NCBI GenBank assembly: GCA_964409675.1
Contig: CAYPEF010000003.1
Coordinates: 1 to 48,018 of the forward strand
Direction of reading: 5' to 3'
DNA from: an uncultured Rickettsiales bacterium
GTDB taxonomy: Bacteria; Pseudomonadota; Alphaproteobacteria; Rickettsiales; SXRF01
Length of the DNA: 48,018 nucleotides
The stretch's first letter is position 1; each line of letters begins with the position of its first letter. The position numbers and the translations under genes were made by a program. Positions 8,629-46,625 of this stretch are shown piece by piece. The notes beneath the pieces were generated by a model. It worked only from the letters and a program-made list of their open reading frames with translations, did no database searches and was not told the origin of the DNA.

Positions 8629-9165
8629 CTATTTATCCAAAATATTAATAAACGCCAATGATAATACCGCTTCATCCGCCTCCGAATCAGTGCTATCGCC
8701 CTCCGCCAGCCGTATTATTCTGCCAACCCCTGCCGCCCGGCCCGCCTGCACGTCGCTTTCCTTGTCACCGATGAGAATGCTTTCCCGCAGATCGATGCCA
8801 TGCTCGCGCGCTGCCTGCAATATCATCCCCGGTTGCGGTTTGCGGCAATGGCAATTCTGCCGGTATTCCCCCTGCCCCGCTTCCGGGTGGTGCGGGCAGT
8901 AATAGGTCTGGGTGATAGTGATATTCTGCTGCGCGAACTGCGCATGTATCCATGCGGTGAAAGCGTGGAATTGCGCCTCGCTGTAATAGCCGCGCCCGAT
9001 GCCCGCCTGGTTAGTAACGATAATAATCAAATATCCTTGCGCCTGCGCCGCTGCGCAAAGCGCGAAAATACCTTCTACGAACTCGCAATTCTCCGGCGTA
9101 TGCACATAGCCGTGATCGATATTGATCACCCCGTCGCGGTCAAGAAAAAGCGCTTTGCGTAACAC
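8629..9165 (-). CDS. gmhB: D-glycero-D-manno-heptose 1,7-bisphosphate phosphatase (HAD family)
   Basis: FLDRDGVIN (DxDG HAD motif I), TNQAGIGRGY, Zn-site CPHHP...CHCRKP, and GDKESD motif. Confidence 0.85.
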   Translation of the reverse strand: MLRKALFLDRDGVINIDHGYVHTPENCEFVEGIFALCAAAQAQGYLIIIVTNQAGIGRGYYSEAQFHAFTAWIHAQFAQQNITITQTYYCPHHPEAGQGEYRQNCHCRKPQPGMILQAAREHGIDLRESILIGDKESDVQAGRAAGVGRIIRLAEGDSTDSEADEAVLSLAFINILDK

Positions 9166-9168
9166 CGC

Positions 9169-10266: not shown

Positions 10267-11204
10267 GCGGTTTTCCTTGCTTCCTCGGTGAAATGATACG
10301 CATACATGCGGCCGAGACCTTCTTCCAGCGAAATCACCGGTTTCCAGCCAAGCGAAAACAGCTTGCCGGAATCCAGCATCTTGCGCGGCGCGCCATCAGG
10401 CTTTTCGGTATCGAGCGAGATGTTGCCGCGATAGCCGACGGTTTTCGCCACCAGCTTCGCCAATTCGCCAATGGTAATCTCCTGCATGGAGCCGACATTG
10501 ATGATTCCGGGATCATCGTAGCGCTCCATCAGGAACAGCAGCGCATCCGCCAGGTCATCGACATAGATAAACTCGCGCAGCGGCGTGCCGCTGCCCCAGA
10601 TCACCTCCTCCGGCGAAAGGGCGAGCTTCGCCGCGTGGAAGCGCTTCATCAGCGCCGGGATCACGTGGCTGGCGGCAGGGTCAAAATTATCATTGATGCC
10701 GTAGGTATTGGTCGGCATCGGCACCACCACCTGCATGCCATATTCGCGCGCATAGGACTGCGCCATGGTAATGCCGTTAATCTTGGCGGCGGCGTAGGCG
10801 ATATTGGTCGGCTCGATATAGCCGTTCAGGAATTCTGCTTCCGCCACCGGCTGCGGCGCGAGCTTGGGATAAGTGCAGGCGGAGCCGGGAAAGAGCAGCT
10901 TCCGCACGCCCGCCTTACGCGCCGCATCCATCACGTTCAGGTGCATTGCCGTATTGTCATAGATAAACTGGCCGGGGTACGTGCTGTTGGCGTGAATGCC
11001 CCCCACCCGCGCCGCCAGGTGGAATACATAGTCCGGCTTTTGTGCAGCCATGTAAGCATTCACCGCAGCCTGATCGCGCAATTCCAGCTCGGCATGCGCG
11101 GGCGCAAGAACCCGGCTAAACCCGCGCTCCGCCAGCAGGCGGCGCAAGGCGGAGCCGACCATCCCTGACGCGCCAGTGATGAGAATGGAATCGTTTTTCT
11201 GCAT
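10263..11204 (-). CDS. GDP-L-fucose synthase family 3,5-epimerase/4-reductase (Fcl/ColC-like)
   Basis: ILITGASGMVGSAL Rossmann motif, YAAAK catalytic dyad, PTNTYGINDNF. Start trimmed to MQKNDS (11204); the ORF-track extension to 11384 runs into the divergent spacer. Confidence 0.75.
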   Translation of the reverse strand: MQKNDSILITGASGMVGSALRRLLAERGFSRVLAPAHAELELRDQAAVNAYMAAQKPDYVFHLAARVGGIHANSTYPGQFIYDNTAMHLNVMDAARKAGVRKLLFPGSACTYPKLAPQPVAEAEFLNGYIEPTNIAYAAAKINGITMAQSYAREYGMQVVVPMPTNTYGINDNFDPAASHVIPALMKRFHAAKLALSPEEVIWGSGTPLREFIYVDDLADALLFLMERYDDPGIINVGSMQEITIGELAKLVAKTVGYRGNISLDTEKPDGAPRKMLDSGKLFSLGWKPVISLEEGLGRMYAYHFTEEARKTA

Positions 11205-12429: not shown

Positions 12430-13398
12430 ATGCCGACCCCGGACATTGCCACCACCAAGCGCCTCTACCATTCCATGCAGCTCATCCGCCGCGTGGAGGA
12501 GCATATCTGCGAAGTCTATCACACCGACGCCATCAAAAGCCCGGTGCACCTCTCCATCGGCCAGGAATCGGTGGCCAGCGGCATCTGCGACGCCATGCAG
12601 GCCGACGACATGGTTTCCAACACCTACCGCTGCCACGCCACCTACATCGCCAAGGGCGGCGATTTGCGCCAGATGATGGCCGAGCTCTACGGCAAATCCG
12701 GCGGCTGCGCGGGCGGCAAGGCGGGCTCGATGCATTTGATCGACATGCCAAACGGCGTGATGGGCGCATCCGCTGTGGTCGGCACCACCGTGCCGGTAGC
12801 GGCGGGCTATGCGCAAGCGCTGCAGTGGGATGCCAAAAAAACCGGCAAGCAGCGCGCCGTAGTCGCCATCTGCGGCGATGGAGCCACCGAGGAAGGCGGC
12901 TACAGCGAAACGCTCAATTACGCCGCGCTGAAAAAACTCCCCATCCTGTTCGTGGTGGAAAATAACGGCTTCGCCATTCACACCCCCATCTTCCGCCGCC
13001 AGCCCAACTGGAATTTGCGCGCCCGCGTGGAAACCTACGGCATCCCCACCCAGTTTATCGATAACGGCGACGTCTTCACCATCCGCGAAGCCACCGCGCA
13101 GGCGCTCGCCCACATCCGTAACGGCGAAGGTCCGCAATTTTTAGAGTGCACCACCTACCGCTGGATGGAGCATGTCGGCCCTACCGACGACCACGACCAC
13201 GGCCCCTACCGCGATTTGAAGGAATACGCCCGCTGGAAGGAATCCGACCAGATCGCCAGACTCGCCAAAACCCTCGGCAAGGAAGCCGAAGCCATCAATT
13301 TGCAGGTAGAAGCCGAACTGCGCGACGCCGTGGATTTCGCCGAAGCCTCGCCCTACCCCTCTAATGCCGAACTGATGAGCCACGTCTATGCCGCATAA
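12430..13398 (+). CDS. ThDP-dependent 2-oxoacid dehydrogenase E1 component, alpha subunit-like
   Basis: E1_dh-type motifs: YRCHATYIAKG, GSMH, ICGDGATEEGGYSETLNYA (ThDP/Mg GDG-x-N motif), TYRWMEHVGPTDD. Confidence 0.85.
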   Translation: MPTPDIATTKRLYHSMQLIRRVEEHICEVYHTDAIKSPVHLSIGQESVASGICDAMQADDMVSNTYRCHATYIAKGGDLRQMMAELYGKSGGCAGGKAGSMHLIDMPNGVMGASAVVGTTVPVAAGYAQALQWDAKKTGKQRAVVAICGDGATEEGGYSETLNYAALKKLPILFVVENNGFAIHTPIFRRQPNWNLRARVETYGIPTQFIDNGDVFTIREATAQALAHIRNGEGPQFLECTTYRWMEHVGPTDDHDHGPYRDLKEYARWKESDQIARLAKTLGKEAEAINLQVEAELRDAVDFAEASPYPSNAELMSHVYAA

Positions 13399-14494
13399 CC
13401 TCGCCCTGAAAGAACGCGAACCCACCAAGGCCACGGATAACAAGCGCCTGATCCGCTACGTGGATGCCATTGCCGAGGCCTGCGCGCAGGCGATGGAAGA
13501 AGATGAGCGCGTATTCGTCTTCGGCCTTGACGTGGACGACCATAAATCCATCCAGGGCTCCACGGCGGGCCTCGTGGAGAAATTCGGGCCGGACCGCTGC
13601 TTCGGCACGCCGCTTTCGGAAGACGCGATGACCGGCATGGCCATCGGCGCGGCTATGGCAGGTTACCGCCCGGTGCATGTGCATATCCGCATGGATTTCA
13701 TGCTGCTGGCCATGAACCAATTGATCAATATCGCCGCCAAGGCGCATTACATGTATAATGGCCAGGTGCGCGTGCCTTTGGTGGTTCGCACCATGGTGGG
13801 CCGCTCCTGGGGTCAGGGCGCGCAGCATTCCCAGGCGCTGCATTCCATGTTCATGCATGTGCCGGGCCTTAAAGTGGTGGCCCCCTCCAACGCGCATGAT
13901 GCCAAGGGCTGCATGCTGGCCGCCATCCGCGATGATTCTCCCGTGATTTTCATGGAGCACCGCCTGCTCTGCAACATGCAGTCCTATGTGGACGAGGCAA
14001 TGTACGAAGTTCCCTTCGGCAAGGCGCGCGTGATGCATGAGGGCAAGGACGTCACCATCCTCGGCATCTCGCATATGGTGATTGAGGCCTTGCGCGCTTC
14101 GCATTACCTTGAAAAATCCGGCATCTCCGCCGAAGTGATCGACCCGATTTCCCTGCGCCCGCTGGATATGGATACCATCATTGCCTCCGTTAAAAAAACC
14201 GGCCGCTTATTGATCGTGGACAATGGCTGGCAGATGTGCGGCGCGGGCGCGGAGATCATGGCGCAGGTGTTCGAGCGGCTGCCGCAAGGCGTGAACGGCA
14301 AACCGGTCGCCATGAAGCGCATGGGCTTCGCCGATACGCCCTGCCCCACCACCAAGCCACTGGAAAACCTGTTTTACCCCAACGGCAAAACCATCGCCGA
14401 AGCCGCTTTCCGTCTGGTAGATCCAAATGGCAAGATCGACCTTCCTGCCGATCATGAGATCAAGGAAGTCGATGAATTCAAAGGGCCGTTTTAA
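13388..14494 (+). CDS. ThDP-dependent E1 component, beta subunit-like (transketolase pyrimidine-binding plus C-terminal domains)
   Basis: DERVFVFGLDV...KFGPDRCFGTPLSEDAMTGMAIGAAMAGYRPV... typical of E1 beta. 11-nt overlap with the alpha gene. Confidence 0.85.
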   Translation: MPHNLALKEREPTKATDNKRLIRYVDAIAEACAQAMEEDERVFVFGLDVDDHKSIQGSTAGLVEKFGPDRCFGTPLSEDAMTGMAIGAAMAGYRPVHVHIRMDFMLLAMNQLINIAAKAHYMYNGQVRVPLVVRTMVGRSWGQGAQHSQALHSMFMHVPGLKVVAPSNAHDAKGCMLAAIRDDSPVIFMEHRLLCNMQSYVDEAMYEVPFGKARVMHEGKDVTILGISHMVIEALRASHYLEKSGISAEVIDPISLRPLDMDTIIASVKKTGRLLIVDNGWQMCGAGAEIMAQVFERLPQGVNGKPVAMKRMGFADTPCPTTKPLENLFYPNGKTIAEAAFRLVDPNGKIDLPADHEIKEVDEFKGPF

Positions 14495-15216
14495 TGGCGC
14501 AGGCTGCCTCCCTCCTCTCCGCTGAAGACACGCTTCTCACCCAGTATGCGCGCGACGGCTATTGCATTCAGGAAAACGTGTTTTCCCCGCAGGAATGCGA
14601 TCATTTAATTGCGGCGGCGAAAGAATTGCCGGACTACCGGCAGGGCATCGTCAAGCCCGCCATGATGCCGCACCGCGTGGATGCCATCTTCCTGCACGCA
14701 CTGAAAAACCCCGCCATCGTCACCATGATGGAAAAGCTGGTGGGCGGCAAGGCAGCCGGCCTGCAAACCGAATTCTTCTACTGCAAGCCCGGCACGCGCG
14801 GCTTTTCCAACCATCAGGATAATTTCTTCGTGCAGGCCCCGTTCGGCGTGTTTGCCTCCGCGTGGATCGCGCTGACCGACACCTATAAGGAAAAAGGCGG
14901 CCTGATCGTCTATCCCGGCACACATGAAGAAGGCCTGCTGCCGGTGCGCCCGGTTGCCATAAGCAAGGATAGCGGCCAGGACCCCAATGCCAACAACGAA
15001 GAATGCGTCATCCCGCCTCGCTACCAGCCGCTGAACGCCTCCGTCCCCAAAGGCGCGGTGCTCTATATCCATGGCCACGTGGTGCACGGCTCCAACCCCA
15101 ACACCACCGATGAATGGCGCTACGTATTGCTCAATACCTACGTCAAAAAAGGCGAGCCCTTCCGCGCCGGTAAATATGCCCAGCGTGAAGAGGTGAATCT
15201 CTACCAATCCGCCTGA
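14494..15216 (+). CDS. Phytanoyl-CoA dioxygenase (PhyH) family Fe(II)/2-oxoglutarate oxygenase
   Basis: HxD motif in GFSNHQDNFF, distal His in IHGHVVHGSNPN. TAATG overlap with the E1 beta stop. Confidence 0.75.
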   Translation: MAQAASLLSAEDTLLTQYARDGYCIQENVFSPQECDHLIAAAKELPDYRQGIVKPAMMPHRVDAIFLHALKNPAIVTMMEKLVGGKAAGLQTEFFYCKPGTRGFSNHQDNFFVQAPFGVFASAWIALTDTYKEKGGLIVYPGTHEEGLLPVRPVAISKDSGQDPNANNEECVIPPRYQPLNASVPKGAVLYIHGHVVHGSNPNTTDEWRYVLLNTYVKKGEPFRAGKYAQREEVNLYQSA

Positions 15217-27894: not shown

Positions 27895-29120
27895 TGGCGG
27901 ATATAATCATGCTGGACGCTAATTTCCTGGCGGATATTCCACGGCAGGATCAACACATAATCCGGCTTGTCGCGCCTTAACATCTCCGGCGCATAAACCG
28001 GCAGACCGGAACCGGGTAAAAAACACTTTTGCTTTTCCGGGTTCATATCCACCGTATAGGCCAGCAGATCTGGCCGGATACCGCAGAAATTAAGCAGCGT
28101 GTTGCCCTTGGCAGGTGCACCATACCCCGCCACACGCTTACCCTCTTCTTGCGCCTTCAGTAAAAAGCGCAACAGTTCATGTTTAATCCGTTCCGCCTTC
28201 GCCTGCAACCCGGCATACGCCTCCGGCGTATCCGGCGATTCCTTCAGCAACGCATCCAGACGCAGCGTCGGCATATGCGCCGCTCCGCTCAGGCAGGCAT
28301 AGACGCGCAGCGATCCGCCATGCGTGGCAATCCGCTCGGCATCGAATACACGCACGCCGTGTAGCGCGAACAAACGCTGCACCACGGCAAGCGACAGATA
28401 GGAAAAATGCTCATGATAAATTGTATCGAACTGGCCTTCGCTGAGTAAATTGGCCACATCCGGGAATTCAACCGTCACCACGCCTTCCGGCTTCAGAAGC
28501 CGCGCCATGCCAGCCACGAAATCATTAATATCGGGCACATGCGCCAGCACGTTATTGGCGGCAATCAGATCAGCTTTGCGCCCCTGCGCCGCCAGCTCAT
28601 GCGCCAGCTTCTCGCCAAAAAAACGGGCGATGGTTTCAATGCCGTGCCGGGCGCGAGCGATGGCAGCCACATTCTCCGCCGGTTCAATGCCCAGCGCTGG
28701 AACGCCAAGCGCTTTAACATGCCGCAGCAAGTATCCGTCATTACTGGCAATTTCCACCACCAGCGAGTTTGCGTCGAGTGCAAAACGCTCTGCCATCTGC
28801 ACTACATACATACGCGCATGTTCCACCATGGTGGAAGCAACAGAGGAGAAATAACGATAGCCGCTAAAGAGCTGTTCCGGCGCAATATTGCAGGTAAGCT
28901 GCATCAAGCGGCACTGCGCGCAGAGTACGGCATGCAGCGGGTAGAACAGCTCCGACTCCCGCGCCTGTGCTGAAGCACGGTAGGCATTGGCAATCGGCGA
29001 CATGCCAAGATCCACCACCGAGTAAAACTCAGCATCCCCGCACATGCGGCAACACATATCATCAAAAGATAGTTTTTTCAGAGCATTATTTTTATCTCTT
29101 AAAGCAGGTTCAGCCCGCAT
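27846..29120 (-). CDS. NDP-hexose C-methyltransferase (TylCIII/EryBIII-like; Zn-ribbon plus class I MT plus C-terminal domain)
   Basis: CRMCG...VVDLGMSPIANAY...YPLHAVLCAQCRLMQL...LFSGYRYFSSVAS, EIASNDGYLL, FDTIYHEHFSYLSL, HGGSLRVYA. Start trimmed to M31 (29120). Confidence 0.75.
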   Translation of the reverse strand: MRAEPALRDKNNALKKLSFDDMCCRMCGDAEFYSVVDLGMSPIANAYRASAQARESELFYPLHAVLCAQCRLMQLTCNIAPEQLFSGYRYFSSVASTMVEHARMYVVQMAERFALDANSLVVEIASNDGYLLRHVKALGVPALGIEPAENVAAIARARHGIETIARFFGEKLAHELAAQGRKADLIAANNVLAHVPDINDFVAGMARLLKPEGVVTVEFPDVANLLSEGQFDTIYHEHFSYLSLAVVQRLFALHGVRVFDAERIATHGGSLRVYACLSGAAHMPTLRLDALLKESPDTPEAYAGLQAKAERIKHELLRFLLKAQEEGKRVAGYGAPAKGNTLLNFCGIRPDLLAYTVDMNPEKQKCFLPGSGLPVYAPEMLRRDKPDYVLILPWNIRQEISVQHDYIRQWGGQFVTAVPELSVW

Positions 29121-30171
29121 CGGCCAGATACTCCTCGGTGTGACGGAAGGCAAGCGCGGCAGCGTCTTTCCCAGCAAGATAGGTTTTATACCAATCCGCC
29201 GTGCGCTCAAGCCCTTTGGCTAAAGTCCATACCGGCTTCCAGCCCAGCTGCTGTTGCGCCTTGGCAGCATCAATCGCGAGCAGGCCCGCCTCATACGGCC
29301 CGGCATGCGGCGGCGTTTCCACGCGCACACTCTCCCCCATGAAGCTATGAAAGGCGGCGATCAGCTCGCCCACCGGCAGCGTATCCTCCACGCCAGGGCC
29401 GATATTCCAGGCTTCTGCGTAAGCCTTCGGTTGCTGTGCCAGATGTTCGGCCAGCATCAGGTACGCACGCACCGGTTCCAGCACGAACTGCCAGGGCCGC
29501 GTCGCCTGCGGATGGCGCAAACACAGCGGCGCACCGGAGATACAGGCGCGGATATAATCCGGCAGCAGCCGGTCCGGCGAGAAATCGCCGCCGCCGATGA
29601 TATTGCCCGCCCGCGCCGTTGCCAGCCCGATGGATTTCGGCGCAAAATACGACGCCCGGTAGGCCTGCACGGCGATTTCCGCCGCCGCTTTGCTGCCGCC
29701 ATACGGCTCCAGCCCGCCAAGCTCATCATCTTCGCGGTACGGCTGGCTGCGCTCCTTGTTCACATAGACTTTATCGGTGGTGGCAATCACAACCGATTGT
29801 ACGGCAGCGCATTCGCGCAGCGCCTCCAGCAGGTGCACCGTGCCCATCACGTTGGTGGCAAAGGTTTCCACCGGGGCGGCGTGCGCCCTGCGCACCAGGC
29901 TCTCCGCCGCCAGATGAAACACCACTTCCGGCTGCGCCCGCTGCACCGCTTCACGCACGCTTGCATAATCGCGCATATCGGCAATGGTTGAATCAAGTGA
30001 AAGCTGTGGCTCCAGCAGCCCATAGAGCGAGGGCGACTCCGCCGCCCGCGCCAGCCCATGCACGCGCGCGCCCAGCACCTGCAACGCCGCCGCCAGCCAT
30101 GCGCCCACAAAGCCGGTATGGCCGGTAATCAGCACGGGGCGCTGATGCCAGAAGGATTTCGTCACGCGCAA
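29110..30171 (-). CDS. rfbG: CDP-glucose 4,6-dehydratase
   Basis: FWHQRPVLITGHTGFVGAWL, YGGSKAAAE (YxxxK), RAGNIIGGGDF and size typical of RfbG. Directly downstream of rfbF. Confidence 0.85.
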   Translation of the reverse strand: MRVTKSFWHQRPVLITGHTGFVGAWLAAALQVLGARVHGLARAAESPSLYGLLEPQLSLDSTIADMRDYASVREAVQRAQPEVVFHLAAESLVRRAHAAPVETFATNVMGTVHLLEALRECAAVQSVVIATTDKVYVNKERSQPYREDDELGGLEPYGGSKAAAEIAVQAYRASYFAPKSIGLATARAGNIIGGGDFSPDRLLPDYIRACISGAPLCLRHPQATRPWQFVLEPVRAYLMLAEHLAQQPKAYAEAWNIGPGVEDTLPVGELIAAFHSFMGESVRVETPPHAGPYEAGLLAIDAAKAQQQLGWKPVWTLAKGLERTADWYKTYLAGKDAAALAFRHTEEYLADAG

Positions 30172-30971
30172 GCAGCAACCGACTTGGAGGCGGCTTTATC
30201 CCATAGCTGCCACTCCGCCTGCCCGGAGCTCCAGATCTCGTTCAGCAATTGCATCTCGCGGTAGGTATCCATGCACTGCCAGAAGCCGTGATGCTGGTGC
30301 ACGGAGAGTTGCTTTGCATCCGTAAGCTCCTCCAGCAGACCATTTTCCAGCGTTACATTCTGATCCACCGGAATCCGCTCAATCGCGGCGCACTCAAATA
30401 CGAAAAACCCACCATTAATCCAGCCCGCCGCCACCTGCGGCTTCTCGACAAAACTATTTACCGCACCATCGCATATATCCAACTCGCCGAAGCGCGAGGA
30501 CGGATGCACGGCGGTAACGGTGGCGAGCTTGCCACTGGCGCGGTGCGCATTTAAGAGCTGATCAAGGTCCACGTTGCTCACACCGTCACCGTAGGTGGCG
30601 AAAAACCGCTCGCCGCTGATAAAGGGCAGCGCCATGCGCAGGCGCGAGCCGGTCAGCGTTTCCTGCCCGGTATCGATGAAGGAAATCCGCCAGTCGAGCG
30701 CGCCGTCATCGTCATATTTGGTAATGCTGTTATCGGCCATGTCCAGCCGGCAATTGAACTGGCGTACGTTGTAATTCAGGAAATAATCGCGGATCATGCC
30801 GCCCTTGTAGCCAAGGCAGAGCACAAAATCGCGCACGCCGAAATGGCGGTAATATTTCATGATATGCCACAAAATCGGCTTATCGCCGATCTTCACCAGT
30901 GGCTTGGGCTTGAATTCGGTTTCTTCGCGCAGCCGGGTGCCCTGCCCGCCGCAGAGAATCACGGCTTCCAT
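30162..30971 (-). CDS. rfbF: Glucose-1-phosphate cytidylyltransferase
   Basis: MEAVILCGGQGTRLREETEFKPKPLVKIGDKPILWHIMKYY... and WQCMDTYRE are hallmark RfbF blocks. Confidence 0.9.
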   Translation of the reverse strand: MEAVILCGGQGTRLREETEFKPKPLVKIGDKPILWHIMKYYRHFGVRDFVLCLGYKGGMIRDYFLNYNVRQFNCRLDMADNSITKYDDDGALDWRISFIDTGQETLTGSRLRMALPFISGERFFATYGDGVSNVDLDQLLNAHRASGKLATVTAVHPSSRFGELDICDGAVNSFVEKPQVAAGWINGGFFVFECAAIERIPVDQNVTLENGLLEELTDAKQLSVHQHHGFWQCMDTYREMQLLNEIWSSGQAEWQLWDKAASKSVAACA

Positions 30972-33850: not shown

Positions 33851-34585
33851 TCAGCGCGCACCGGTTACGCTGATGATGGAACCGGAAACATACGACGCCT
33901 TCTCAGACAGCAGCCACGCAACCGCCTCCGCTACTTCATCCGCAGAGCCAAGGCGTCCCAGCGGGATTGAGGATTTTAAGCCCTCGAGCCGTTCAGGCGT
34001 GGCAGCCGCATGCGCATCGGTATCAATCACCCCTGGGCTGACCGCATTTACACGGATATTATAGGCCGCCAGTTCCCGCGCCAGTCCGATAGTAAGCGTA
34101 TTCACCGCTCCCTTGGAGGCCGCATACCCGGCAATGCGGTTGCCGCCGAATTTTGCCGCCTCGGAAGAAATATTAACAATAGCGCCGCCGCTTGCGCGCA
34201 TGCGCTTTACCGCCTCATGGCAGCACAGCATTACCCCGCCCACATTCACCGCCAGCGTCTGCATGAGATTGGCATAGCTTACATGCTCGGCGGTGCCGGT
34301 ATTGGGCAGGTTGACGGCGGCGTTATTCACCAGCGCCGTCACCGGCCCGAGCGAGGCGTCAATGCGGGAAAACAGGGCGATAATATCGGCTTCGCTGCCC
34401 ATATCCGCCTGCGCGGCGATCGCCTTGCCGCCGCTGCGCTCAATCTCCGCCACCACCGCCTCGGCCTGCGCACGCTGGCTATGGTAATTGACGCATACGG
34501 CGTAGCCTTCCCGCGCCAGCGTTTTCGCCACCGCCGCGCCGATACCACGGCTGGCGCCGGTGACGAGCGCAACCTTAGGCGGCAT
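33851..34585 (-). CDS. Classical SDR oxidoreductase
   Basis: ALVTGASRGIGAAV (TGxxxGxG), NNAA, YAASKGAV (YxxxK). Confidence 0.85.
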   Translation of the reverse strand: MPPKVALVTGASRGIGAAVAKTLAREGYAVCVNYHSQRAQAEAVVAEIERSGGKAIAAQADMGSEADIIALFSRIDASLGPVTALVNNAAVNLPNTGTAEHVSYANLMQTLAVNVGGVMLCCHEAVKRMRASGGAIVNISSEAAKFGGNRIAGYAASKGAVNTLTIGLARELAAYNIRVNAVSPGVIDTDAHAAATPERLEGLKSSIPLGRLGSADEVAEAVAWLLSEKASYVSGSIISVTGAR

Positions 34586-35585
34586 CGCGCTTCTGCTTCA
34601 TCGCCGGGTCGTTGAAGGCAATGTAGCGCTTATCCGCGTCATTGCGGTTAGCCACATACCAGGCAATGGTTTCCTTGATGCCTTCTTCAATGGAAACTTC
34701 GCATGCAAAGCCGTACCCTGCCGCGCGCGTCATATCCATCAAGCGTTTTTTATCGCCGGCGGGCTTGTCCTTGTCCCAGACAATCGGCACCGGGCCGCCG
34801 GGTACGTGCTTGGCCACCATTTCAGCCACTTCGCGAATGGTCACGCCCGCGCCGGAGCCCAGATTAATCGGCTCGTTAATGCCTTTTTCCACCGCCAGCA
34901 TCATGCCCCGCGCCACGTCGCGCGCATGGATGAAATCGCGGATGGGAGAGCCATCACCCCAGACGGTCAGCGGATTTTCGCCTTCCACGGCGCGCCGTAT
35001 CAGCGAGGGAATCACCATGGCGTTTTCAGGGTCGAAATTATCATACGGCCCGTACACATTGGCCGGGCGCACGATAGAGATTTTATCCCAGCCATATTCA
35101 ATCTTGTAGGCTTCCGCCTGCAATTCGCCCATGCGCTTGGCCCACCCGGCGAAGCGGTCGTTCGGCGAGGGGAAGGTCGTCCAGACGCTATCTTCATAAA
35201 ACACCTCGGCAGGCTGATACACGCCCACCGAGCTGGTGAACAGGAACCGCTCCGCCCCGCTCCTGCGCGCCGCTTCCATCATGTTGATGGAAAACTGCAT
35301 GGTCGGCACAAAGAAGCTGGCCGGGCGCTTGGCGGTCATGGCGGGGGAGCCTTTCACGCCCGCCAGCTGGAACACGATTTCCTTGCCCTTGCACACACTC
35401 ATGCAGCTCTCAAACTCGCGCAAATCCGCCTTCACGAATGTGCAGCCCTTCGGCGCGCGGCTGGGGTCATCCAGCGACACCACGGATACGTTGGCGCCTT
35501 GTGCAATCAGCATTTCCACTAAAGGCCGGCCAATCAGTCCGGTGCCGCCAGTAACAAGTACGTTCTTTCCCTGATAAAATCCCAT
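34575..35585 (-). CDS. Extended-SDR NAD-dependent epimerase/dehydratase family protein (non-canonical active-site motif)
   Basis: VLVTGGTGLIGRPL, RPANVYGPYDNF. The expected YxxxK position reads FAGWAK. Start trimmed to MGFYQGK (35585), which has an AAGGA SD. Confidence 0.7.
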   Translation of the reverse strand: MGFYQGKNVLVTGGTGLIGRPLVEMLIAQGANVSVVSLDDPSRAPKGCTFVKADLREFESCMSVCKGKEIVFQLAGVKGSPAMTAKRPASFFVPTMQFSINMMEAARRSGAERFLFTSSVGVYQPAEVFYEDSVWTTFPSPNDRFAGWAKRMGELQAEAYKIEYGWDKISIVRPANVYGPYDNFDPENAMVIPSLIRRAVEGENPLTVWGDGSPIRDFIHARDVARGMMLAVEKGINEPINLGSGAGVTIREVAEMVAKHVPGGPVPIVWDKDKPAGDKKRLMDMTRAAGYGFACEVSIEEGIKETIAWYVANRNDADKRYIAFNDPAMKQKRDAA

Positions 35586-35752
35586 TTTCACCATCCTTAT
35601 GAATATGAACCCGCAAGCTACAGCCCCCGCCGGCAAACGCAACCCGAAAATGCACGCCTGCCAAGGCATACGCGCCTTTTTCATACAAGCGCTTTACCGA
35701 GGCGTTCAATCGCCCTACAAGCACGCAAGCAGAACTACGAAAGGAATCCTGC

Positions 35753-38191: not shown

Positions 38192-39175
38192 TTAGGCCGC
38201 CCTTGACAGGCGCGGCGCCAGCGTCTGGGGATCGATATTTTCCCGCCACCAGTGGATTGCGTCGCGGATCCCATCCTCCAGCCCGATCTTCGGCTTCCAG
38301 CCCAGCTCTTTCTCCGCCAGCGCGCAATCGAGACTCAGCGAAGTCTTGATGGTCGGCGCGCTTAAGTCATGCTCGATGGCGAGCTTCTTGCCCGATGCCT
38401 GCACCATCTGCTCGATCACCCGCTTCACCGGATAGGCCTTGCCGAGGCCGCAATTATAGAGGCGGTATTTCTCCGGCTGTCTTGCAATGGCGGCTTCCAC
38501 GAAATCGCAGAGATCACTTGCGTGCAGCAAATCGCGCTCCTCCTCGCCGGTACCCCACATGATAATTTTATCGTTGGCCGTCATCACCTTGGTGATATTC
38601 GCGCCGAAGAAATGGCTGCGCTCCAGGTCATATTTATCGTGCGGACCGTAAATATTAGAATGGCGGATGGCGGTGAATTTCGTGTCGGCCAGCCCGGCGA
38701 AGAACTCGCACATTTTCTCGATATAGAGCTTGGTGTTGCCCACCCCGAAATAGCGCGGGTGCAGCGGGCGGTTGGCGTCGAAATCGGATTCCTTCAGCGG
38801 CGTGTCGGATGACTGGTACATCACTGTGCAGCTGAAGAAAATCACGTGCTTCACCTTCTTCTCGAAGGCGGCGCGGAATAGGTAGGAATTCATCACCGCG
38901 TTGTCGGTCACGTGGATGAACGGCTTGGTGACGATATCCTTCGCCCCCGAAGTGGTCGCCGCCGCCTGGACGATAATGTCCATCCCCTCCACCAGCTTCT
39001 CCACCACTACCGGGTCGCGCAAATCCGCCTGGTGCCAGACGGTATTGGCAAGCGGATATTCCGGGCGCTTATAGCGTACCGCGTGCACTTCGTACTCGCC
39101 GCTACGCGCAAACCGCTCGGCCATGTTGCGCCCAACGAAGCCGGTGGCGCCGCAAATGAGAATCTTCTTTTTCAT
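38192..39175 (-). CDS. Extended-SDR NAD-dependent epimerase/dehydratase family protein
   Basis: KILICGATGFVGRNM, RHSNIYGPHDKY. Start trimmed to MKKKIL (39175). Confidence 0.75.
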   Translation of the reverse strand: MKKKILICGATGFVGRNMAERFARSGEYEVHAVRYKRPEYPLANTVWHQADLRDPVVVEKLVEGMDIIVQAAATTSGAKDIVTKPFIHVTDNAVMNSYLFRAAFEKKVKHVIFFSCTVMYQSSDTPLKESDFDANRPLHPRYFGVGNTKLYIEKMCEFFAGLADTKFTAIRHSNIYGPHDKYDLERSHFFGANITKVMTANDKIIMWGTGEEERDLLHASDLCDFVEAAIARQPEKYRLYNCGLGKAYPVKRVIEQMVQASGKKLAIEHDLSAPTIKTSLSLDCALAEKELGWKPKIGLEDGIRDAIHWWRENIDPQTLAPRLSRAA

Positions 39176-39301
39176 GCTGTTCCTATCATTTATCTTCTGG
39201 GATGCGCCTTCGAGTTGTAATGGCCCCCGCATGGCGAGGCAAGCGCATAAATCGGGCGAGAGCGGTTGCGCATGAGGTGAGAGCGTGGCATAGTCGCGCC
39301 C

Positions 39302-40228
39302 ATGTCGGCCATAGCGGAAACCCCCCTGATTTCACTGATCGTCATCGTGCACAACGGCGCGGGCACTATCGACAGGGCGCTGGAATCGGTGAAGCGGCAG
39401 ACTTACGCGCATTACGAGCTTCTGGTGCTGGACGCCGCCTCCACCGACGGCACGCAAGCCATCATCGAGCAATACCGCGATATCCTCACCTACTACCACT
39501 CCCGCCCCGACAACGGCCCCTACGATGCCTTCCACCAGTCCTTCGCGCTGGCCAAGGGTGACATTATCGGACTGCTTAACGCCGACGACTGGCTGAGTCC
39601 CGAGGCGCTGGCGGAGGTGGTCGCGCTTTACCATGCACACCCGCACGCGCAGATTTTCAGCTTCGGCATCCAGGAGCACCAGCTGCTGACAGACGGCACG
39701 CTCGCGCCAGGCCGTTACCTGCCCGCACAGACGGACGCGCAATTTACCCTTGCCGACGGGCTCTACTGCCACGGCCTGACGCAGTTCTACGCCCGCGACG
39801 TCATCGCCCGCGAAGGAAGCTACAAGGTGGAGCAATACCCCCAGCTGGCCGACCGCGAGTTCTATATCCGCTTAGGCCTGCAAAATCTGCCGCGCGCAGG
39901 CGTGGATAAGCCGCTCTATCATTTCCTGGTGCACCCGCAATCCAATTCCATGAGCGGCAATATCCCCAAAACCGCTGCCATGCTCGCCGAAACGCTGGAC
40001 GTAGCGCGCAACTGCCTGAAGCGCCGGGATATAGACGCGGCACAGCGCCGCCTGTTCGCCCGCTGGTACAGCTTCAACGCGGTGCGCACCGCCTGGTTCC
40101 AGTGGCGCGCCCGCCAATGCGGCGCGGCGGTCAAAACCATGCTCGGGGCGCTGCGCCAGCCATTGGAGCTGATTGCCATCTTGCGCGACCACCGCCTGCC
40201 TCCCGCCTTCCGGCCCCGGCATGGCTAA
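39302..40228 (+). CDS. Glycosyltransferase family 2
   Basis: ISLIVIVHNGAGTIDRALESVKRQTYAHYELLVLDAASTDGT, LNADD (DxD-type). Confidence 0.8.
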   Translation: MSAIAETPLISLIVIVHNGAGTIDRALESVKRQTYAHYELLVLDAASTDGTQAIIEQYRDILTYYHSRPDNGPYDAFHQSFALAKGDIIGLLNADDWLSPEALAEVVALYHAHPHAQIFSFGIQEHQLLTDGTLAPGRYLPAQTDAQFTLADGLYCHGLTQFYARDVIAREGSYKVEQYPQLADREFYIRLGLQNLPRAGVDKPLYHFLVHPQSNSMSGNIPKTAAMLAETLDVARNCLKRRDIDAAQRRLFARWYSFNAVRTAWFQWRARQCGAAVKTMLGALRQPLELIAILRDHRLPPAFRPRHG

Positions 40229-41129
40229 AATCGACATCCTGCTCGCCGCCTATAACGGCGCGCCTTACCTCTGCGCCCAGATCGATTCCCTGCTGCGCCA
40301 GGATTACCCGCACTGGCGACTGTTGATCCGCGATGACGGCTCCACCGACGACACACGCGCCCTCGCCCAGTCCTACGCAGTGCAATACCCGGACAAAATC
40401 CAGCTGCTGCCTATGGGCGGCAATCTCGGCGCTTCCGGCAATTTCGCTGCCCTGCTCGCGACCTCCACCGCCGAATATGCCATGTTCTGCGACCAGGACG
40501 ACGTCTGGCACCCGCAGAAAATCAGCGTAAGCCTGAAGGAAATGCAGGCGCTGGAAGCGCAGCATGGCAAGGACACGCCGCTGCTGGTGCACGCGGACGC
40601 GCGGATCGTGGACAGCAACCTGCATCTACTGCACCCCTCCTTCGCCGCCTATGAGCGCTTACAGCCGGAGCACGCCACGCTCGCGCGCCTGCTGGTGCAG
40701 AACGCCGCGCAAGGCTGCGCCATGCTGCTGAACCGCGCGCTGGCGCGCCTCGCCTCCCCTATCCCTGCGGAAGCTCGGATGCATGACATGTGGGTTGCGC
40801 TGATAGCCGCCGCCTGCGGCTATATCGCCTATATCCCCGAGCCACTCCTCGATTACCGCCAGCACGCCAACAACGCCATCGGTACGCCGGGCGCAAATAT
40901 GGAGAAGATCAAAGGCCGTATCCGCCAGATGATGCAGGATAACCTCGCGCAGGCCCACGCGCTGCATGCGCGCTGCGCCGCACACATGCCAGCCGACAGC
41001 CGCACCATCGTGGAATCCTTCCTCGCCCTGCCCGCATTGCCGTGGGGCCTGCGCCAGCTACGGCTCCTCACCGGCGGCTACCTGCGCCACCCGCTGCATG
41101 AGAATCTGGCGGTGCTGTGGCATTACTGA
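40221..41129 (+). CDS. Glycosyltransferase family 2 (rhamnosyltransferase-like)
   Basis: KIDILLAAYNGAPYLCAQIDSLLRQDYPHWRLLIRDDGSTDDT, FCDQDDVW. Start at MAKIDIL overlaps the upstream stop (ATGGCTAA). Confidence 0.8.
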   Translation: MAKIDILLAAYNGAPYLCAQIDSLLRQDYPHWRLLIRDDGSTDDTRALAQSYAVQYPDKIQLLPMGGNLGASGNFAALLATSTAEYAMFCDQDDVWHPQKISVSLKEMQALEAQHGKDTPLLVHADARIVDSNLHLLHPSFAAYERLQPEHATLARLLVQNAAQGCAMLLNRALARLASPIPAEARMHDMWVALIAAACGYIAYIPEPLLDYRQHANNAIGTPGANMEKIKGRIRQMMQDNLAQAHALHARCAAHMPADSRTIVESFLALPALPWGLRQLRLLTGGYLRHPLHENLAVLWHY

Positions 41130-41135
41130 CGTTTC

Positions 41136-41301
41136 CCTCCCCCTGGAGGGGGAGGATAGCAATCCTTAGCGCTTGCGCTTAGGATTGCTTGGTGGGGGTG
41201 AAAGACCTCTCAGTATAACTTCACCGCTGTCACCCTCACTCAGCATCTTCTAAATGCTAAAGCATTAAGAAGATGCAACCCTCTCCCTTAAAGGGAGAGG
41301 G
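41136..41301. repeat. Cluster of four REP-like hairpins between convergent genes
   Basis: 41136-41155: CCTCCCCC/GGGGGAGG. 41159-41188: 14-bp arms with 1 mismatch. 41243-41276: 16-bp arms with 1 mismatch. 41279-41301: CCCTCTCCCT/AGGGAGAGGG followed by a T-run. Confidence 0.75.
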
Positions 41302-41310: not shown

Positions 41311-42600
41311 TTACGCCGCCGCTTTCACGCCTTGCGCGGCCATAAACTCGTCGATGCATTTCGCCACGTATTCGCAGGCTTCCTTGCTCACCGCATGATG
41401 GCAGCCGACGGCAAAGCCACGGGTCATGATGGTATCGCAATTCTCCAGCGTTCCCGCCACGCGGTGGGTGAACATCTTGAGCGCCGGGTGCTTGGCCATG
41501 TTGCCGGCGATGATTGGCCGGGTTTCGATGTTTTTCTTGTTCAGGAACGCTGTGATATCCCTCGGCGTAAACGGCGCGCCCTCTTTCAGCACGATGCCGA
41601 AGCCGAACCAGCTGGCCTCGCCGCCCGTTTGCTCCTCCTGGAAGCGGAAATAGCGGGAGTGCTTGTCCAGCAGTTTGCGGTAGGTATCGCGCGCCGCGCG
41701 GCGGTTTTTCACGAAGCCTTCCAGCTTGGGCAGCTGCTTCATGCCCATCACCGCCTGCACTTCGGTGGGGCGCAGATTATAGCCGAGATTGATGAAGATA
41801 AAGCGCGGGTCGATCTCGGGGTATTCCTTGATATATTTCTCTTTCTCATCCGCCTCGCGGCTCCAGCCGTGGGCGCGGAGCACGCGCATCAGTTCGGTGA
41901 GCTTGAAATTATCGGTAAAGCAGATGCCGCCCTCAAACGTGGTGATGTGGTGCGAGTAATAAAAGCTCATGGTGCCGACATCGCCGAGCGTGCCGATCAT
42001 CTTGCCCTTGTATTTTGCACCCATCGATTCGCAGGTATCCTCGATCACGTAAAGCTTGTGCTTCTTGGCCAGCGCCAGAATGGCATCCATGTCGCACGGA
42101 TTGCCGTACACGTGCACGAGCATAATGGCCTTGGTTTTGGGCGTAATCGCCGCTTCCAGCTTCTTCATGTCGAAATTATAGGTATCCAAATCGCAATCCA
42201 CGAACACCGGCACCAGCTGATGCTGAATCAGCGGCCAGACAGTCGTTGCCCAAGAAAGCGCGGGCACGATCACCTCATCGCCCGGCTTCAAATGATTCTC
42301 CCACGCCGGATTCGCCAGCGCCGCCACAGCGAGCAAATTGGCCGAGGAGCCGGAATTGTTCATTAAGCTGTATTTGCAGCCGAAATAGGAAGCGCACTGC
42401 TCCTCAAAGCTGCGCACCTGCTTGCCCATGGTGACCATGGTGGAGAGCGACTGATTGATCATCGCGTTCACCTCTTCCGCGCCGAAGCTTGTCTCATGCA
42501 GGCGCACGGCGGGGTTTGTTGGGTCGAAAGCGAAGTTGAAATGCTCCTTGCAGTAGGCGTTTACGTTTTCTTCAATCGCTTGCAGATGCTTGTCGGTCAT
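41311..42600 (-). CDS. PLP/PMP-dependent NDP-4-keto-6-deoxy-sugar 3-dehydratase, ColD-like (DegT/DnrJ/EryC1 fold)
   Basis: SFYYSHHITTFEGG: the Schiff-base Lys position is His (codon 41950-41952, CAC on the minus strand). LRAHGWSRE, LSWATT and ASWFGFGIVLKEG blocks resemble ColD. No Cys-rich Fe-S motif as in RfbH/E1. Start at MTDKHLQ (42600) with a GAGGAGA SD. Confidence 0.8.
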   Translation of the reverse strand: MTDKHLQAIEENVNAYCKEHFNFAFDPTNPAVRLHETSFGAEEVNAMINQSLSTMVTMGKQVRSFEEQCASYFGCKYSLMNNSGSSANLLAVAALANPAWENHLKPGDEVIVPALSWATTVWPLIQHQLVPVFVDCDLDTYNFDMKKLEAAITPKTKAIMLVHVYGNPCDMDAILALAKKHKLYVIEDTCESMGAKYKGKMIGTLGDVGTMSFYYSHHITTFEGGICFTDNFKLTELMRVLRAHGWSREADEKEKYIKEYPEIDPRFIFINLGYNLRPTEVQAVMGMKQLPKLEGFVKNRRAARDTYRKLLDKHSRYFRFQEEQTGGEASWFGFGIVLKEGAPFTPRDITAFLNKKNIETRPIIAGNMAKHPALKMFTHRVAGTLENCDTIMTRGFAVGCHHAVSKEACEYVAKCIDEFMAAQGVKAAA

Positions 42601-42619
42601 ATTCACTCTCCTCGTTGTC

Positions 42620-42681
42620 ATTCCCGCGCAGGCGGGAATCTAGCTTTACTTACATTCCTGGATTCCCGCTTGCGCGGGAAT
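42620..42681. repeat. Two ATTCCCGC-N4-GCGGGAAT palindromes (ATTCCC-N8-GGGAAT type) 42 bp apart
   Basis: 42620-42639 ATTCCCGCGCAGGCGGGAAT and 42662-42681 ATTCCCGCTTGCGCGGGAAT, both in the 89-nt spacer between the Gmd/Rmd-like and ColD-like genes. Confidence 0.8.
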
Positions 42682-42689
42682 AACAGTGT

Positions 42690-43706
42690 TTAGCGCGTCA
42701 AAAACTGGCTGCCGCTGGCTACGCGCTCGCGCCAGTAATCGAGCAGGTCCTGCATGGTTTTCTCAAACGGTATCTGCGGTTTCCAGCCGGTATGGGCTTC
42801 GAATTTAGTTGTGTCCGGCACCTGCAAATCGGCATCAATGGGGCGCAGGCGGTCGGGGTCAATCTCCACCTTGATTTCCCCTTTTTTCGGCGACAGCGAG
42901 ATCAGATGATTCAGCATCTCACGCACCGAGCAGGTGAACTGCCCGCCGATATTGTAATACGCCCCCGGCGTCGGGTTGATCGTCACCAGCATCACATACG
43001 CTCGCACCGCATCGCGCACGTCGGCAAAGGTGCGTAAAGAATCCAGGTTGCCTACCTTGATCACCGGCGCGATCATCCCCTGCTCGATCATGGCAATCTG
43101 CTTGGCAAACGTCGACTCGGCGAATACGTCGCCGCGCCTCGGGCCGGTATGGGTGAACATGCGGGTGGTCATCACCTTCATGTTGTAAGCCTCGGCATAG
43201 AAGCGCCCCACCAGGTCAGTGCCGACCTTGGAAATGGCGTAAGGAGACGCCGGGTGGAACGTGCATTCCTCGTTAATCGGCAGCTTCTCCTTCGGCACCC
43301 GTCCGAACACTTCCGAAGAGGCGCAGACATGGATCACCGCGTCCTGCTTGTAGGTTTTCAGCGCCTCCAGCACGCGGCTGGTGCCCTGGATATTGGTTTC
43401 ATACGTATCCAGCGGGGCGGTGAAGCTGGTTTTGGGGTAGCTCTGCGCGGCGAGGTGAAACACGTAATCCGGCAGGCACAGGCGCACCGCCTCGTTAATC
43501 GAGTCGGAATCGCGCAAATCGCCGTAGATCAGGTGAATGCGGTCTTTGCTGTTAATGCGCGGGATAAGGTGGGAGAGGTTATCCAAGGGGCTGCGCCAGC
43601 GCGTTAAACCGTAAATTTCCCAGTCAGTCTGCTCCAGCAGGAAATCCGCCAGGTGGGAACCGACCATGCCGGTAATGCCGGTGATGAATGCGCGTTTTTT
43701 GGTCAT
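42690..43706 (-). CDS. GDP-sugar 4,6-dehydratase / 4-reductase family SDR (Gmd/Rmd-like)
   Basis: AFITGITGMVGSHL, ASSEVFG, SPYAISK (YxxxK), FTHTGPRRGDVF, VGNLDSLRTFADVRD. Sits between hddC and the ColD-like gene. Confidence 0.65.
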   Translation of the reverse strand: MTKKRAFITGITGMVGSHLADFLLEQTDWEIYGLTRWRSPLDNLSHLIPRINSKDRIHLIYGDLRDSDSINEAVRLCLPDYVFHLAAQSYPKTSFTAPLDTYETNIQGTSRVLEALKTYKQDAVIHVCASSEVFGRVPKEKLPINEECTFHPASPYAISKVGTDLVGRFYAEAYNMKVMTTRMFTHTGPRRGDVFAESTFAKQIAMIEQGMIAPVIKVGNLDSLRTFADVRDAVRAYVMLVTINPTPGAYYNIGGQFTCSVREMLNHLISLSPKKGEIKVEIDPDRLRPIDADLQVPDTTKFEAHTGWKPQIPFEKTMQDLLDYWRERVASGSQFLTR

Positions 43707-43709
43707 TAG

Positions 43710-44426
43710 TCAGGCTGCGTTTTTCTTAATGAATGGTTTTAATTCTGCTTCCGCTCTCGCGTAATCGCTGGGGATGCCGATGTCAATAAAATACCCCTTC
43801 ACCTCATAGCCGTACATCGGGATGACATCCGCATAGGGCCGCTGATAATCGACCTCAAAGGAAAAAACTTCCGGCAGGCTCAGCCCGGCAAATGCGTCCG
43901 GCGAAATAATATAGCAGCCGGTGCTGATAAACCCTTCCCCCGCCCCGCCGGGATAGCAGAACGATACAATCCGTCCGTCCGGCGTGCAGCCTATTTCCCC
44001 GTAACGGCTGCAATCGGGCATATTGCGCAGTGCAACCGTCACTTTCGCCTGTTTTTCCTCATGTTCCTTCAGCATGGCGGGAATATCCGCCTCTACGAAT
44101 GTATCGCCGTTGGAGACATAGACCGGCTTCTCCGGCTGCAAGGCATCCAGCGCCAGCCTGATCGCCCCACCGGTGCCAAGCGGTGTGGATTCCTCCGTAT
44201 AGGTAATCGGCATCCCCTCAAACGCATCCCCGAAATAGGAGCGGATAACCGGGGCCAGATGGTGCAGCGACAGCAGCGCATGCGTTATCCCCTGCCCTTG
44301 CAGGTAGCGCAGGTAATGCGCCAGAAACGGCTCGCCCGCAATCGGGGCCATGGGTTTGGGAATATCCTCGCCGATGGCGGATTTCAACCGTGTGCCGAAT
44401 CCCCCGGCAAGGATAATGGCCTGCAT
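43710..44426 (-). CDS. hddC: D-glycero-alpha-D-manno-heptose 1-phosphate guanylyltransferase-type nucleotidyltransferase
   Basis: MQAIILAGGFGTRLKS...PKPMAPI, LGTGGAI. ~238 aa. Flanked by gmhA. Confidence 0.7.
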   Translation of the reverse strand: MQAIILAGGFGTRLKSAIGEDIPKPMAPIAGEPFLAHYLRYLQGQGITHALLSLHHLAPVIRSYFGDAFEGMPITYTEESTPLGTGGAIRLALDALQPEKPVYVSNGDTFVEADIPAMLKEHEEKQAKVTVALRNMPDCSRYGEIGCTPDGRIVSFCYPGGAGEGFISTGCYIISPDAFAGLSLPEVFSFEVDYQRPYADVIPMYGYEVKGYFIDIGIPSDYARAEAELKPFIKKNAA

Positions 44427-44431
44427 GCAGC

Positions 44432-45049
44432 TTACGCCATTGCCTTATCGGCTTTGGGCGCATATTCCGTGCCGAAAATGGCCTGCTCGATCAGCGAGCA
44501 ATAGATATGGCCGAGCAGCATATGGCATTCCTGGATTTTCGGCGTCTCGTTCGAAGGCATGCACAGGCAGAGATCGCACAGAGCCTTCATTTTCCCCCCG
44601 CTTTTACCGGTCTTGCCGATCACCGCGATTCCTTTAGCTTTCGCCGCCTCGATAGCCTTCAGGATATTGGGTGAATTGCCGGAGGTGGAGATGGCAATCA
44701 GCACGTCTCCCTCCTGCCCCACCGCTTCCACCTGGCGGGAGAAGGCGTTTTCAAACCCGTAATCGTTGCCGATGGCAGTCAGCGCCGACGTATCCACGGT
44801 CAGCGCCAGCGCGCACAGGCCAGGACGGTTAAAATTCAGCCGCGACACCAGCTCAGCGCTTAAATGCTGCGAATCCGCCGCCGAGCCGCCATTGCCGCAG
44901 AACAGGATTTTCCTGCCCGCCCGCAGTGCCCGCTCGCAGACATCGCTTACCTCCTGCACTTGCGCAAGCAGGTTCGTATCGGCCAGTAGCGCGTCGATGG
45001 TGGCGCGGGTTTTGCGGATTTCATCGGCAATCATCGGGTGCATGGACAT
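44432..45049 (-). CDS. gmhA: Phosphoheptose (sedoheptulose-7-phosphate) isomerase, SIS domain
   Basis: FCGNGGSAADSQHLSAELVSR, TAIGNDYGFENAFSRQV, ISTSGNSPNI. Confidence 0.85.
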   Translation of the reverse strand: MSMHPMIADEIRKTRATIDALLADTNLLAQVQEVSDVCERALRAGRKILFCGNGGSAADSQHLSAELVSRLNFNRPGLCALALTVDTSALTAIGNDYGFENAFSRQVEAVGQEGDVLIAISTSGNSPNILKAIEAAKAKGIAVIGKTGKSGGKMKALCDLCLCMPSNETPKIQECHMLLGHIYCSLIEQAIFGTEYAPKADKAMA

Positions 45050-45052: not shown

Positions 45053-45853
45053 TTACAAGTAATAAACGAAATTGCGCCGCCCGATATGGTAGCAGCCATA
45101 GCCGATCATCATCGCCACCACTGATACTGCGCAGGATTTCAGCAGCATGGCAAGCGTCGGCAGCGTATGATGATAGACCAGCTCCACCGCCGGCTGCATC
45201 AGGATAACAATCGGGTTCCATTGCAAGATGGCCTGCACCCATTCCGGCACGGCGGCTACCGGATAAACAATGGCGCTGAACCAGAATAGCATGTTCATGG
45301 CCACCATAATCGCCTCGCCGATATCGCGCACATACGGCGCGGTGAAGGCAATGCCGATCGCCATTCCCATGACGGCGCCCAGCACCGGCAGGAAATAAAT
45401 GGGCCATAACAGCACATGCAGCGACACCGGCGCGCCCAGCAGGGTAACGAACCCCAGCATCGTTAGAAATGCGATGAAATATGTATAGACGTTGCGGAAT
45501 ACATCCGCGATCGGGAAAATGGTGGAGGAGATCATACAGCGCTTAAGCGTCTCCCCTTGCGCCAGCAGCGACGCGCTCGCCCCGATCATCGAGGAAGAAA
45601 TGAACCCCCACAGCGGCAGTGTGCAGATGATATAAAGCGTATAATCTGAATGCGGCATGCGCATAATCATCGGCATAATCACCGAATAAACAATCACCAT
45701 CGAAAGCGGCTGGAACAGCGTCCAGAGGATGCCAAGATAGGAATTGCGGTACTGGCGCGTCAACCCGCTTTTGGCGATCAGCACGGCGGTGCGCCAGTAA
45801 TAAGGATCAAGGAATATGGCGAATTGTCGCATACGGCTAGGCACTGGCTGCAT
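45053..45853 (-). CDS. wzm: ABC-2 type polysaccharide export permease
   Basis: ~266 aa with six hydrophobic segments, ABC-2 layout. 17-nt overlap with the upstream ATPase gene. Confidence 0.8.
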   Translation of the reverse strand: MQPVPSRMRQFAIFLDPYYWRTAVLIAKSGLTRQYRNSYLGILWTLFQPLSMVIVYSVIMPMIMRMPHSDYTLYIICTLPLWGFISSSMIGASASLLAQGETLKRCMISSTIFPIADVFRNVYTYFIAFLTMLGFVTLLGAPVSLHVLLWPIYFLPVLGAVMGMAIGIAFTAPYVRDIGEAIMVAMNMLFWFSAIVYPVAAVPEWVQAILQWNPIVILMQPAVELVYHHTLPTLAMLLKSCAVSVVAMMIGYGCYHIGRRNFVYYL

Positions 45854-46625
45854 GCCTCACCTCCCCGGGCAAAGCCGTCTCAGGCGGGCGCGGCAGGTGC
45901 AGAATATCCTCGCGGTACTGGCGGATGATCTCGCGCCCCGGCCCTTCATTGATAATACGCCCCTGGTGCATCAGCACGAAGCGGTTGCATATATTAACCA
46001 TCTCGTCATGGTTATGACTGATGATAATGGTAATGGCCGCATTGTTTACCTTAGCCTTGATCGCTTCCGCCGATTTATGGGTAAAGCCTGCATCGCCGGT
46101 GGCAAAAATCTCGTCCAGCAGTAGGATGTCCGGCTCCTGGAAAATCGCCGAGGAAAAAGCCAGGCGGGAAGCCATGCCGGAGGAATAGGATTTCAGCGGC
46201 AGGTCGATTTTCTCGCCAAGCTCGGAGAATTCGATCACCTTTTCTTCAATATCCCTGGAATATTCGCGCAGCTTCCCGCGATAGGCATAGGTGAGCTTGA
46301 TATTGCCCCGTCCTGACACTTCGCTTTCAAACCCCGCCCCCATCTCGATCAACGGCACGATGGTGCCTTCCACATGCCGCACCCCGGCATGGATCGGGTA
46401 ATTGCCGGAAATTACTTTCAATAACGAAGATTTACCGCTGCCGTTCGCCCCCAGCAGGGCAATGCGGTCGCCAGCTTTGGCTTCAAACGAAACATCCTGT
46501 AAAATGGGAATGCGCACTGGGCGCAGCGAAGCGCGGCGGGTGAACCACTGCCGAAGCGTCGCCGCACGTGCATGCGTATCGATTCCGTAAACGGAAATAT
46601 TCTGAAGCTGTATCAGTGCGGACAT
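45837..46625 (-). CDS. wzt: Polysaccharide export ABC transporter ATP-binding protein (NBD only, no C-terminal carbohydrate-binding module)
   Basis: Walker A GANGSGKSS, signature YSSGMASRL, Walker B ILLLDE, H-loop SHN. 262 aa. Confidence 0.85.
   Translation of the reverse strand: MSALIQLQNISVYGIDTHARAATLRQWFTRRASLRPVRIPILQDVSFEAKAGDRIALLGANGSGKSSLLKVISGNYPIHAGVRHVEGTIVPLIEMGAGFESEVSGRGNIKLTYAYRGKLREYSRDIEEKVIEFSELGEKIDLPLKSYSSGMASRLAFSSAIFQEPDILLLDEIFATGDAGFTHKSAEAIKAKVNNAAITIIISHNHDEMVNICNRFVLMHQGRIINEGPGREIIRQYREDILHLPRPPETALPGEVRHAASA

Follow-up and report, generated by a model that had tools for sequence, protein, structure and literature searches.

The locus described here most likely removes two hydroxyls from a seven-carbon sugar nucleotide. 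It lies in a stretch of 48,018 nucleotides from an uncultured Rickettsiales bacterium (the window) and encodes a DegT-fold protein that, by tree position and gene context, stands in a heptose-dedicated lineage of its own, outside both canonical ColD and E1. This 3-dehydratase branch of a known enzyme family is previously unrecognised. We favor, with a probability of roughly 55%, a pathway in which a GDP-heptose is 4,6- and then 3-dehydrated, and the 4-keto product is then tailored by a conserved set of partner enzymes. Homology and context show what the first six enzymes are and that they are linked to heptose; we infer all steps beyond the 4-keto intermediate. The 3,6-dideoxyheptose chemistry itself has been demonstrated before, in C. 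jejuni HS:5 / HS:11, which uses a canonical ColD-type enzyme (PMC10440746).

Organization of the locus and heptose precursor genes

An earlier note on this DNA had described a minus-strand operon of wzt, wzm, gmhA, hddC, an SDR gene and a DegT-fold gene. Every gene was found at its place, and the operon is tightly packed, with intergenic spacings of -17, 3, 5, 3 and 68 nt in this order.

45837-46625, minus strand: wzt, first gene of the operon, polysaccharide-export ABC-transporter ATPase (NF050108 Wzt/RfbE, 153.8 bits; TagH-like matches; PF00005)
45053-45853, minus strand: wzm, ABC-2 permease (PF01061 ABC2_membrane; weak KpsM and Wzm NCBIfam matches)
44432-45049, minus strand: gmhA, sedoheptulose-7-phosphate isomerase (TIGR00441, 205.4 bits, cutoff 209.45; PRK13936, 211 bits)
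43710-44426, minus strand: hddC-like, heptose-1-phosphate guanylyltransferase (top NCBIfam model HddC NF049965, 186.6 bits, cutoff 300)
42690-43706, minus strand: SDR46, GDP-heptose 4,6-dehydratase-type SDR (361.7 bits and 50% identity to 7US5)
41311-42621, minus strand: DegT-fold protein, PMP/PLP-dependent sugar 3-dehydratase of the His type without Fe-S motif (PF01041, 318.7 bits)
41279-41301, no strand: strong G+C-rich hairpin of 10 bp just past the DegT stop codon, between convergent genes; likely a terminator
39302-40228 and 40173-41129, plus strand: two GT2 glycosyltransferases (PF00535), with orthologues adjoining the DegT homologue in locus L002 (43-44% identity)

The hddA, gmhB and Fcl-like genes were likewise present at 8629-11204, where the earlier note had placed them, and form a coupled operon with gaps of -4 and 3.

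10263-11204, minus strand: Fcl/GMER-type 3,5-epimerase/4-reductase (49% identical to E. coli Fcl; NF047922, 397.7 bits, cutoff 500)
9169-10266, minus strand: hddA-like, heptose-7-phosphate kinase of the GHMP family (top NCBIfam model HddA, 142.8 bits, cutoff 600)
8629-9165, minus strand: gmhB, heptose-1,7-bisphosphate 7-phosphatase (TIGR00213, 198.3 bits, cutoff 149.6)

The locus thus has the full set of four heptose-nucleotide genes, and gmhA and hddC share the operon of SDR46 and the DegT-fold gene. GmhA, HddA and HddC matched the correct NCBIfam families below the curated cutoffs; only GmhB scored above. Orthologues of gmhA in related loci were 57-67% identical, and hddA orthologues adjoining DegT homologues 55-73%. 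In tblastn searches of the window with E. coli ManC and Gmd, neither a ManC nor a true Gmd was found, and the ManC query did not match the hddC-like gene. The absence of a GDP-mannose pyrophosphorylase from the window, which had been noted earlier, was thereby borne out. The window also contains genes for RfbF, RfbG, two more Fcl-related SDRs, a FabG-like SDR, a PDH-E1 alpha/beta-like pair and a PhyH protein, which the earlier note had not mentioned. The finished sugar or sugars would presumably enter a polysaccharide exported by Wzm/Wzt. The host is known from a MAG alone.

Two dehydratases with a heptose context

SDR46 is a member of the GDP_Man_Dehyd Pfam family and retains the S-x-E and YxxxK motifs. 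It was 50% identical to 7US5, the solved C. jejuni GDP-heptose 4,6-dehydratase, but only 36% to Rmd and 30% to E. coli Gmd. A phylogenetic placement had been proposed; in a neighbor-joining (NJ) tree SDR46 fell into one clade with 7US5, apart from Gmd and Rmd. An assignment of SDR46 to the GDP-heptose 4,6-dehydratase type, neither Gmd nor Rmd, is therefore supported by its sequence, and the suggestion that it could be an Rmd-type reductase was not upheld.

The DegT-fold protein contains the segment SFYYSHHITTFEGG. Its first His is H224 of the 436-residue open reading frame and aligns with the Lys of the E1 H220K mutant (3bb8), a position that is His in wild-type E1 and in ColD. The true start is likely M8 at 42600, because the database protein P0001 has 429 residues. 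The alignment thus agreed with the earlier reading of His at the PLP-lysine position, and also with the reported lack of the Cys-rich Fe-S segment of RfbH/E1: RAHGWSR is present, the place of E1's RDCYCAPGCDNTC contains no Cys, and the 120 closest database homologues all lack the E1 Cys motif. Two blocks, LRAHGWSR and SWFGF, had been taken as shared with ColD. The first held, while SWFGF also occurs in E1 and therefore does not discriminate between the two. In overall similarity the protein was equidistant, with bit scores of 282 to E1 and 281 to ColD (38.1% and 39.7% identity).

Its DegT/DnrJ/EryC1 fold and weaker matches to PseC, LegC, ArnB and perosamine synthase could indicate an ordinary sugar 4-aminotransferase, which would yield a 4-amino-4,6-dideoxyheptose. 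We regard this as very improbable. The Schiff-base Lys is replaced by His here and in all 82 homologues examined, which is the ColD/E1 signature, and the dehydratase scores (about 281 bits) are far above those of aminotransferases (180 bits or less). The sequence supports a His-type, Fe-S-free 3-dehydratase, neither an aminotransferase nor E1.

An NJ tree of the DegT-fold proteins was combined with the gene context of 82 loci. The E1-type group adjoins RfbF/RfbG. The canonical ColD group (52-64% identity to E. coli ColD) adjoins true Gmd (52-79%), ManC and Fcl. The clade of the window's protein is 37-44% identical to ColD and adjoins SDR46 orthologues (68-87%) and hddA/hddC/gmhA/gmhB; its members always had adjacent heptose genes and never Gmd/ManC or RfbF/RfbG. 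The expectation of a relative that is neither aminotransferase nor E1 was supported, but membership in the ColD clade was not, as the protein falls into a clade of its own. The conserved context in about 20 related loci supports a heptose-derived substrate, not GDP-mannose or CDP-glucose.

Two pathways with hexose substrates have to be weighed against this. If manC were elsewhere and the SDR were Gmd or Rmd, a GDP-mannose pathway could lead to colitose or a related 3,6-dideoxyhexose. The Pfam family of the SDR would fit, as would an upstream pgmG (phosphomannomutase/phosphoglucomutase) and the true Gmd adjoining Fe-S-free relatives in L009, L011, L013, L018, L020 and L022. We nevertheless consider it highly unlikely, given the similarity and clade of SDR46, the four heptose-nucleotide genes and the lack of any clade member next to Gmd or ManC.

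The second would have an E1/RfbH-type protein act on CDP-4-keto-6-deoxy-D-glucose, supplied by the window's RfbF and RfbG (29110-30971; 310.5 bits, cutoff 300.25, and 390.8 bits, cutoff 278.45), to form a CDP-3,6-dideoxyhexose. RfbH was the top NCBIfam model for the DegT-fold protein, and JGI annotates homologues as CDP-6-deoxy-D-xylo-4-hexulose-3-dehydrase. However, the RfbH score of 395.8 bits is below the cutoff of 423, the Cys-rich segment is missing, and the window has no E3 or FNR-like gene. Homologues linked to RfbF/RfbG, except in L046, are a different clade with the Cys motif (35-41% identity), whereas the DegT-fold gene of the window is coupled to hddC and SDR46. The CDP branch also has a tailoring set of its own (C-methyltransferase, RmlC-like epimerase, reductase). 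We hold this pathway, too, to be highly unlikely.

Clade position and constant heptose neighbors therefore make the formation of GDP-3,6-dideoxy-4-keto-heptose well supported. In the pathway that we favor, SDR46, as a DmhA/DdahA-type enzyme, would carry out the 4,6-dehydration, and the His-for-Lys DegT-fold enzyme would then take off the 3-hydroxyl by the ColD mechanism, with a PMP ketimine at C4, elimination of the 3-hydroxyl and hydrolysis. PMP would be regenerated from glutamate, and an Fe-S cluster and an E3 reductase would be unnecessary.

Proposed tailoring genes and the finished sugar

The 4-keto intermediate is probably not just reduced, but passed to a conserved tailoring set scattered over the locus, which would comprise the intact Fcl-type enzyme and the following proteins.

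38192-39232, minus strand: SDR38, GMER-related extended SDR, conserved dehydratase partner; likely start around 39175
34575-35684, minus strand: SDR34, GMER/ColC-derived paralogue, best-conserved dehydratase partner
33851-34585, minus strand: adh33, classical FabG-like SDR, candidate ketoreductase (PF13561 and PF00106)
12430-13398 (alpha) and 13388-14494 (beta), plus strand: PDH-E1-like ThDP pair, candidate two-carbon carboligase (PF00676, PF02779, PF02780)
14494-15216, plus strand: PhyH-family Fe(II)/2-oxoglutarate dioxygenase (PF05721, 91.3 bits), translationally coupled to PDH beta

The most constant partners of the dehydratase were SDR38 and SDR34, two degenerate GMER-like SDRs, both present in L001, L002, L004, L005 and L085-L090. 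SDR38 (orthologues 51-78% identical in 13 clade loci) keeps Ser-Cys, the His179 equivalent and Lys, with no Tyr in register. SDR34 (orthologues 62-89%) has lost the catalytic Cys, Tyr and His through Cys109->Gly, Tyr136->Ala and His179->Met, substitutions that are invariant in 10 orthologues, whereas relatives outside the clade retain the three residues. Orthologues of adh33 (41-63%) were found in seven loci (L002, L004, L005, L085, L086, L088, L089), and those of PhyH (49-66%) in L004, L086, L087 and L088.

The PDH alpha protein has an intact GDG-X26-NN motif, and its closest solved structure is pyruvate E1 alpha; no E2 or E3 gene is near the pair in the window. A PDH-like gene was present in 8 of 16 clade loci versus about 2 of 74 others (Fisher p = 6e-6). 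The pair is directly upstream of the DegT homologue in L005 and L006, nearby in L085-L087, and about 27 kb from the dehydratase in the window. It may introduce a two-carbon branch at C4, following the logic of yersiniose and AviB1-AviB2. Branching is not obligatory for the clade, since L001, L002, L004, L088 and L089 have no such pair within 10 kb of the dehydratase.

The earlier note had predicted a locus for a GDP-3,6-dideoxy-(L?)-heptose. The 3,6-dideoxy-4-keto-heptose part of this prediction was strengthened by SDR46, the DegT-fold protein and their context, while an Fcl-type finish to the plain sugar is only possible. In such a finish, the Fcl/ColC-like enzyme would epimerize C5 and reduce C4 to yield GDP-3,6-dideoxy-L-xylo-heptose. 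This sugar, which C. jejuni HS:11 also has, corresponds to colitose in the heptose series. The PDH pair, PhyH and the extra SDRs would then serve other sugars of the polymer. The Fcl-like enzyme scored 306-311 bits against solved Fcl structures and, at 49% identity to the E. coli protein, keeps S107, C109, Y136, K140 and H179; it is catalytically intact, so a colitose-like heptose may be the product. Its gene is translationally coupled to hddA and gmhB, and canonical ColD loci combine the dehydratase with an Fcl-like gene. However, in clade loci the Fcl-like gene was found only alongside the ThDP enzyme (L005, L085, L097 and probably L086), and it is absent from the same five loci that have no PDH-like pair within 10 kb, where the dehydratase retains SDR38 and SDR34. 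Moreover, L005 and L006, where the pair adjoins the dehydratase, have no CDP-sugar genes, so that the pair is unlikely to be part of another branch. We therefore hold the plain sugar to be a tentative alternative. The genes that always accompany the dehydratase suggest that the finished sugar is more elaborate than plain GDP-3,6-dideoxyheptose.

Relation to known pathways

In C. jejuni, GDP-3,6-dideoxyheptose is made by a four-enzyme route in which a ColD-type enzyme acts on GDP-6-deoxy-4-keto-heptose (Ghosh, Xiang and Raushel 2023, PMC10440746). HS:5/HS:11 and the window have the precursor genes gmhA, hddA and hddC in common, as well as the same type of GDP-heptose 4,6-dehydratase (50% to 7US5). 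The C. jejuni 3-dehydratase, however, is 62-67% identical to E. coli ColD and belongs to the canonical group, whereas the window's is 39.7% identical and belongs to another clade. In C. jejuni, a cupin C5-epimerase and a dedicated C4-reductase complete the pathway; the partners in the window are a bifunctional enzyme of the Fcl type, two degenerate GMER paralogues, a FabG-like SDR, PhyH and a ThDP enzyme. Wzm/Wzt take the place of a Kps capsule system in export, and the host lies outside the epsilonproteobacteria.

The GDP-colitose pathway of E. coli O55 and Y. pseudotuberculosis consists of Gmd, ColD and ColC. It has in common with the window an Fe-S-free, His-for-Lys 3-dehydratase with the RAHGW(S/T)R motif, GDP-linked substrates and an Fcl/GMER-type epimerase-reductase. 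The window differs in its substrate (heptose, not mannose), in lacking Gmd and ManC, in a dehydratase outside the ColD clade, and in the loop after RAHGW (YPxIDPRFxFxNxGYNL versus NLPK...FEESFxFVLPGYN). With the E1/E3 system (RfbH/AscC with AscD) for CDP-3,6-dideoxyhexoses, the window's protein shares the DegT fold, His at the Lys position, about 38% identity and, in part, the SWFGF block and the loop length around (Y/F)xxxGYNL, but the window has no [2Fe-2S] cysteine segment and no E3 reductase gene, and the conserved neighbors are not CDP-glucose genes.

The closest parallels to the proposed branching are YerE, which adds a C2 branch to CDP-3,6-dideoxy-4-keto-glucose (PMC9306805), and the PDH-like AviB1/AviB2 and Pau11/Pau12, for which two-carbon branching at C4 has been proposed (PMC4425429, PMC4753412), in the case of AviB1/AviB2 from genetics alone. 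In the yersiniose (YerE/YerF), AviB1/AviB2 and Pau11/Pau12 systems, as in the window, a (3,6-dideoxy-)4-keto nucleotide sugar is made beside a ThDP enzyme and ketoreductases. As with AviB1/AviB2, the window's ThDP enzyme is of the PDH-E1 alpha/beta type and is followed by a gene for a non-heme-iron enzyme. The acceptor in the window would be a GDP-heptose and not a CDP- or TDP-hexose, and the setting is a Gram-negative polysaccharide locus and not an actinomycete antibiotic cluster. The window has no YerE-type single-chain enzyme, and we infer its branching activity entirely. The module was also found in uncultured phages of roughly 65 kb.

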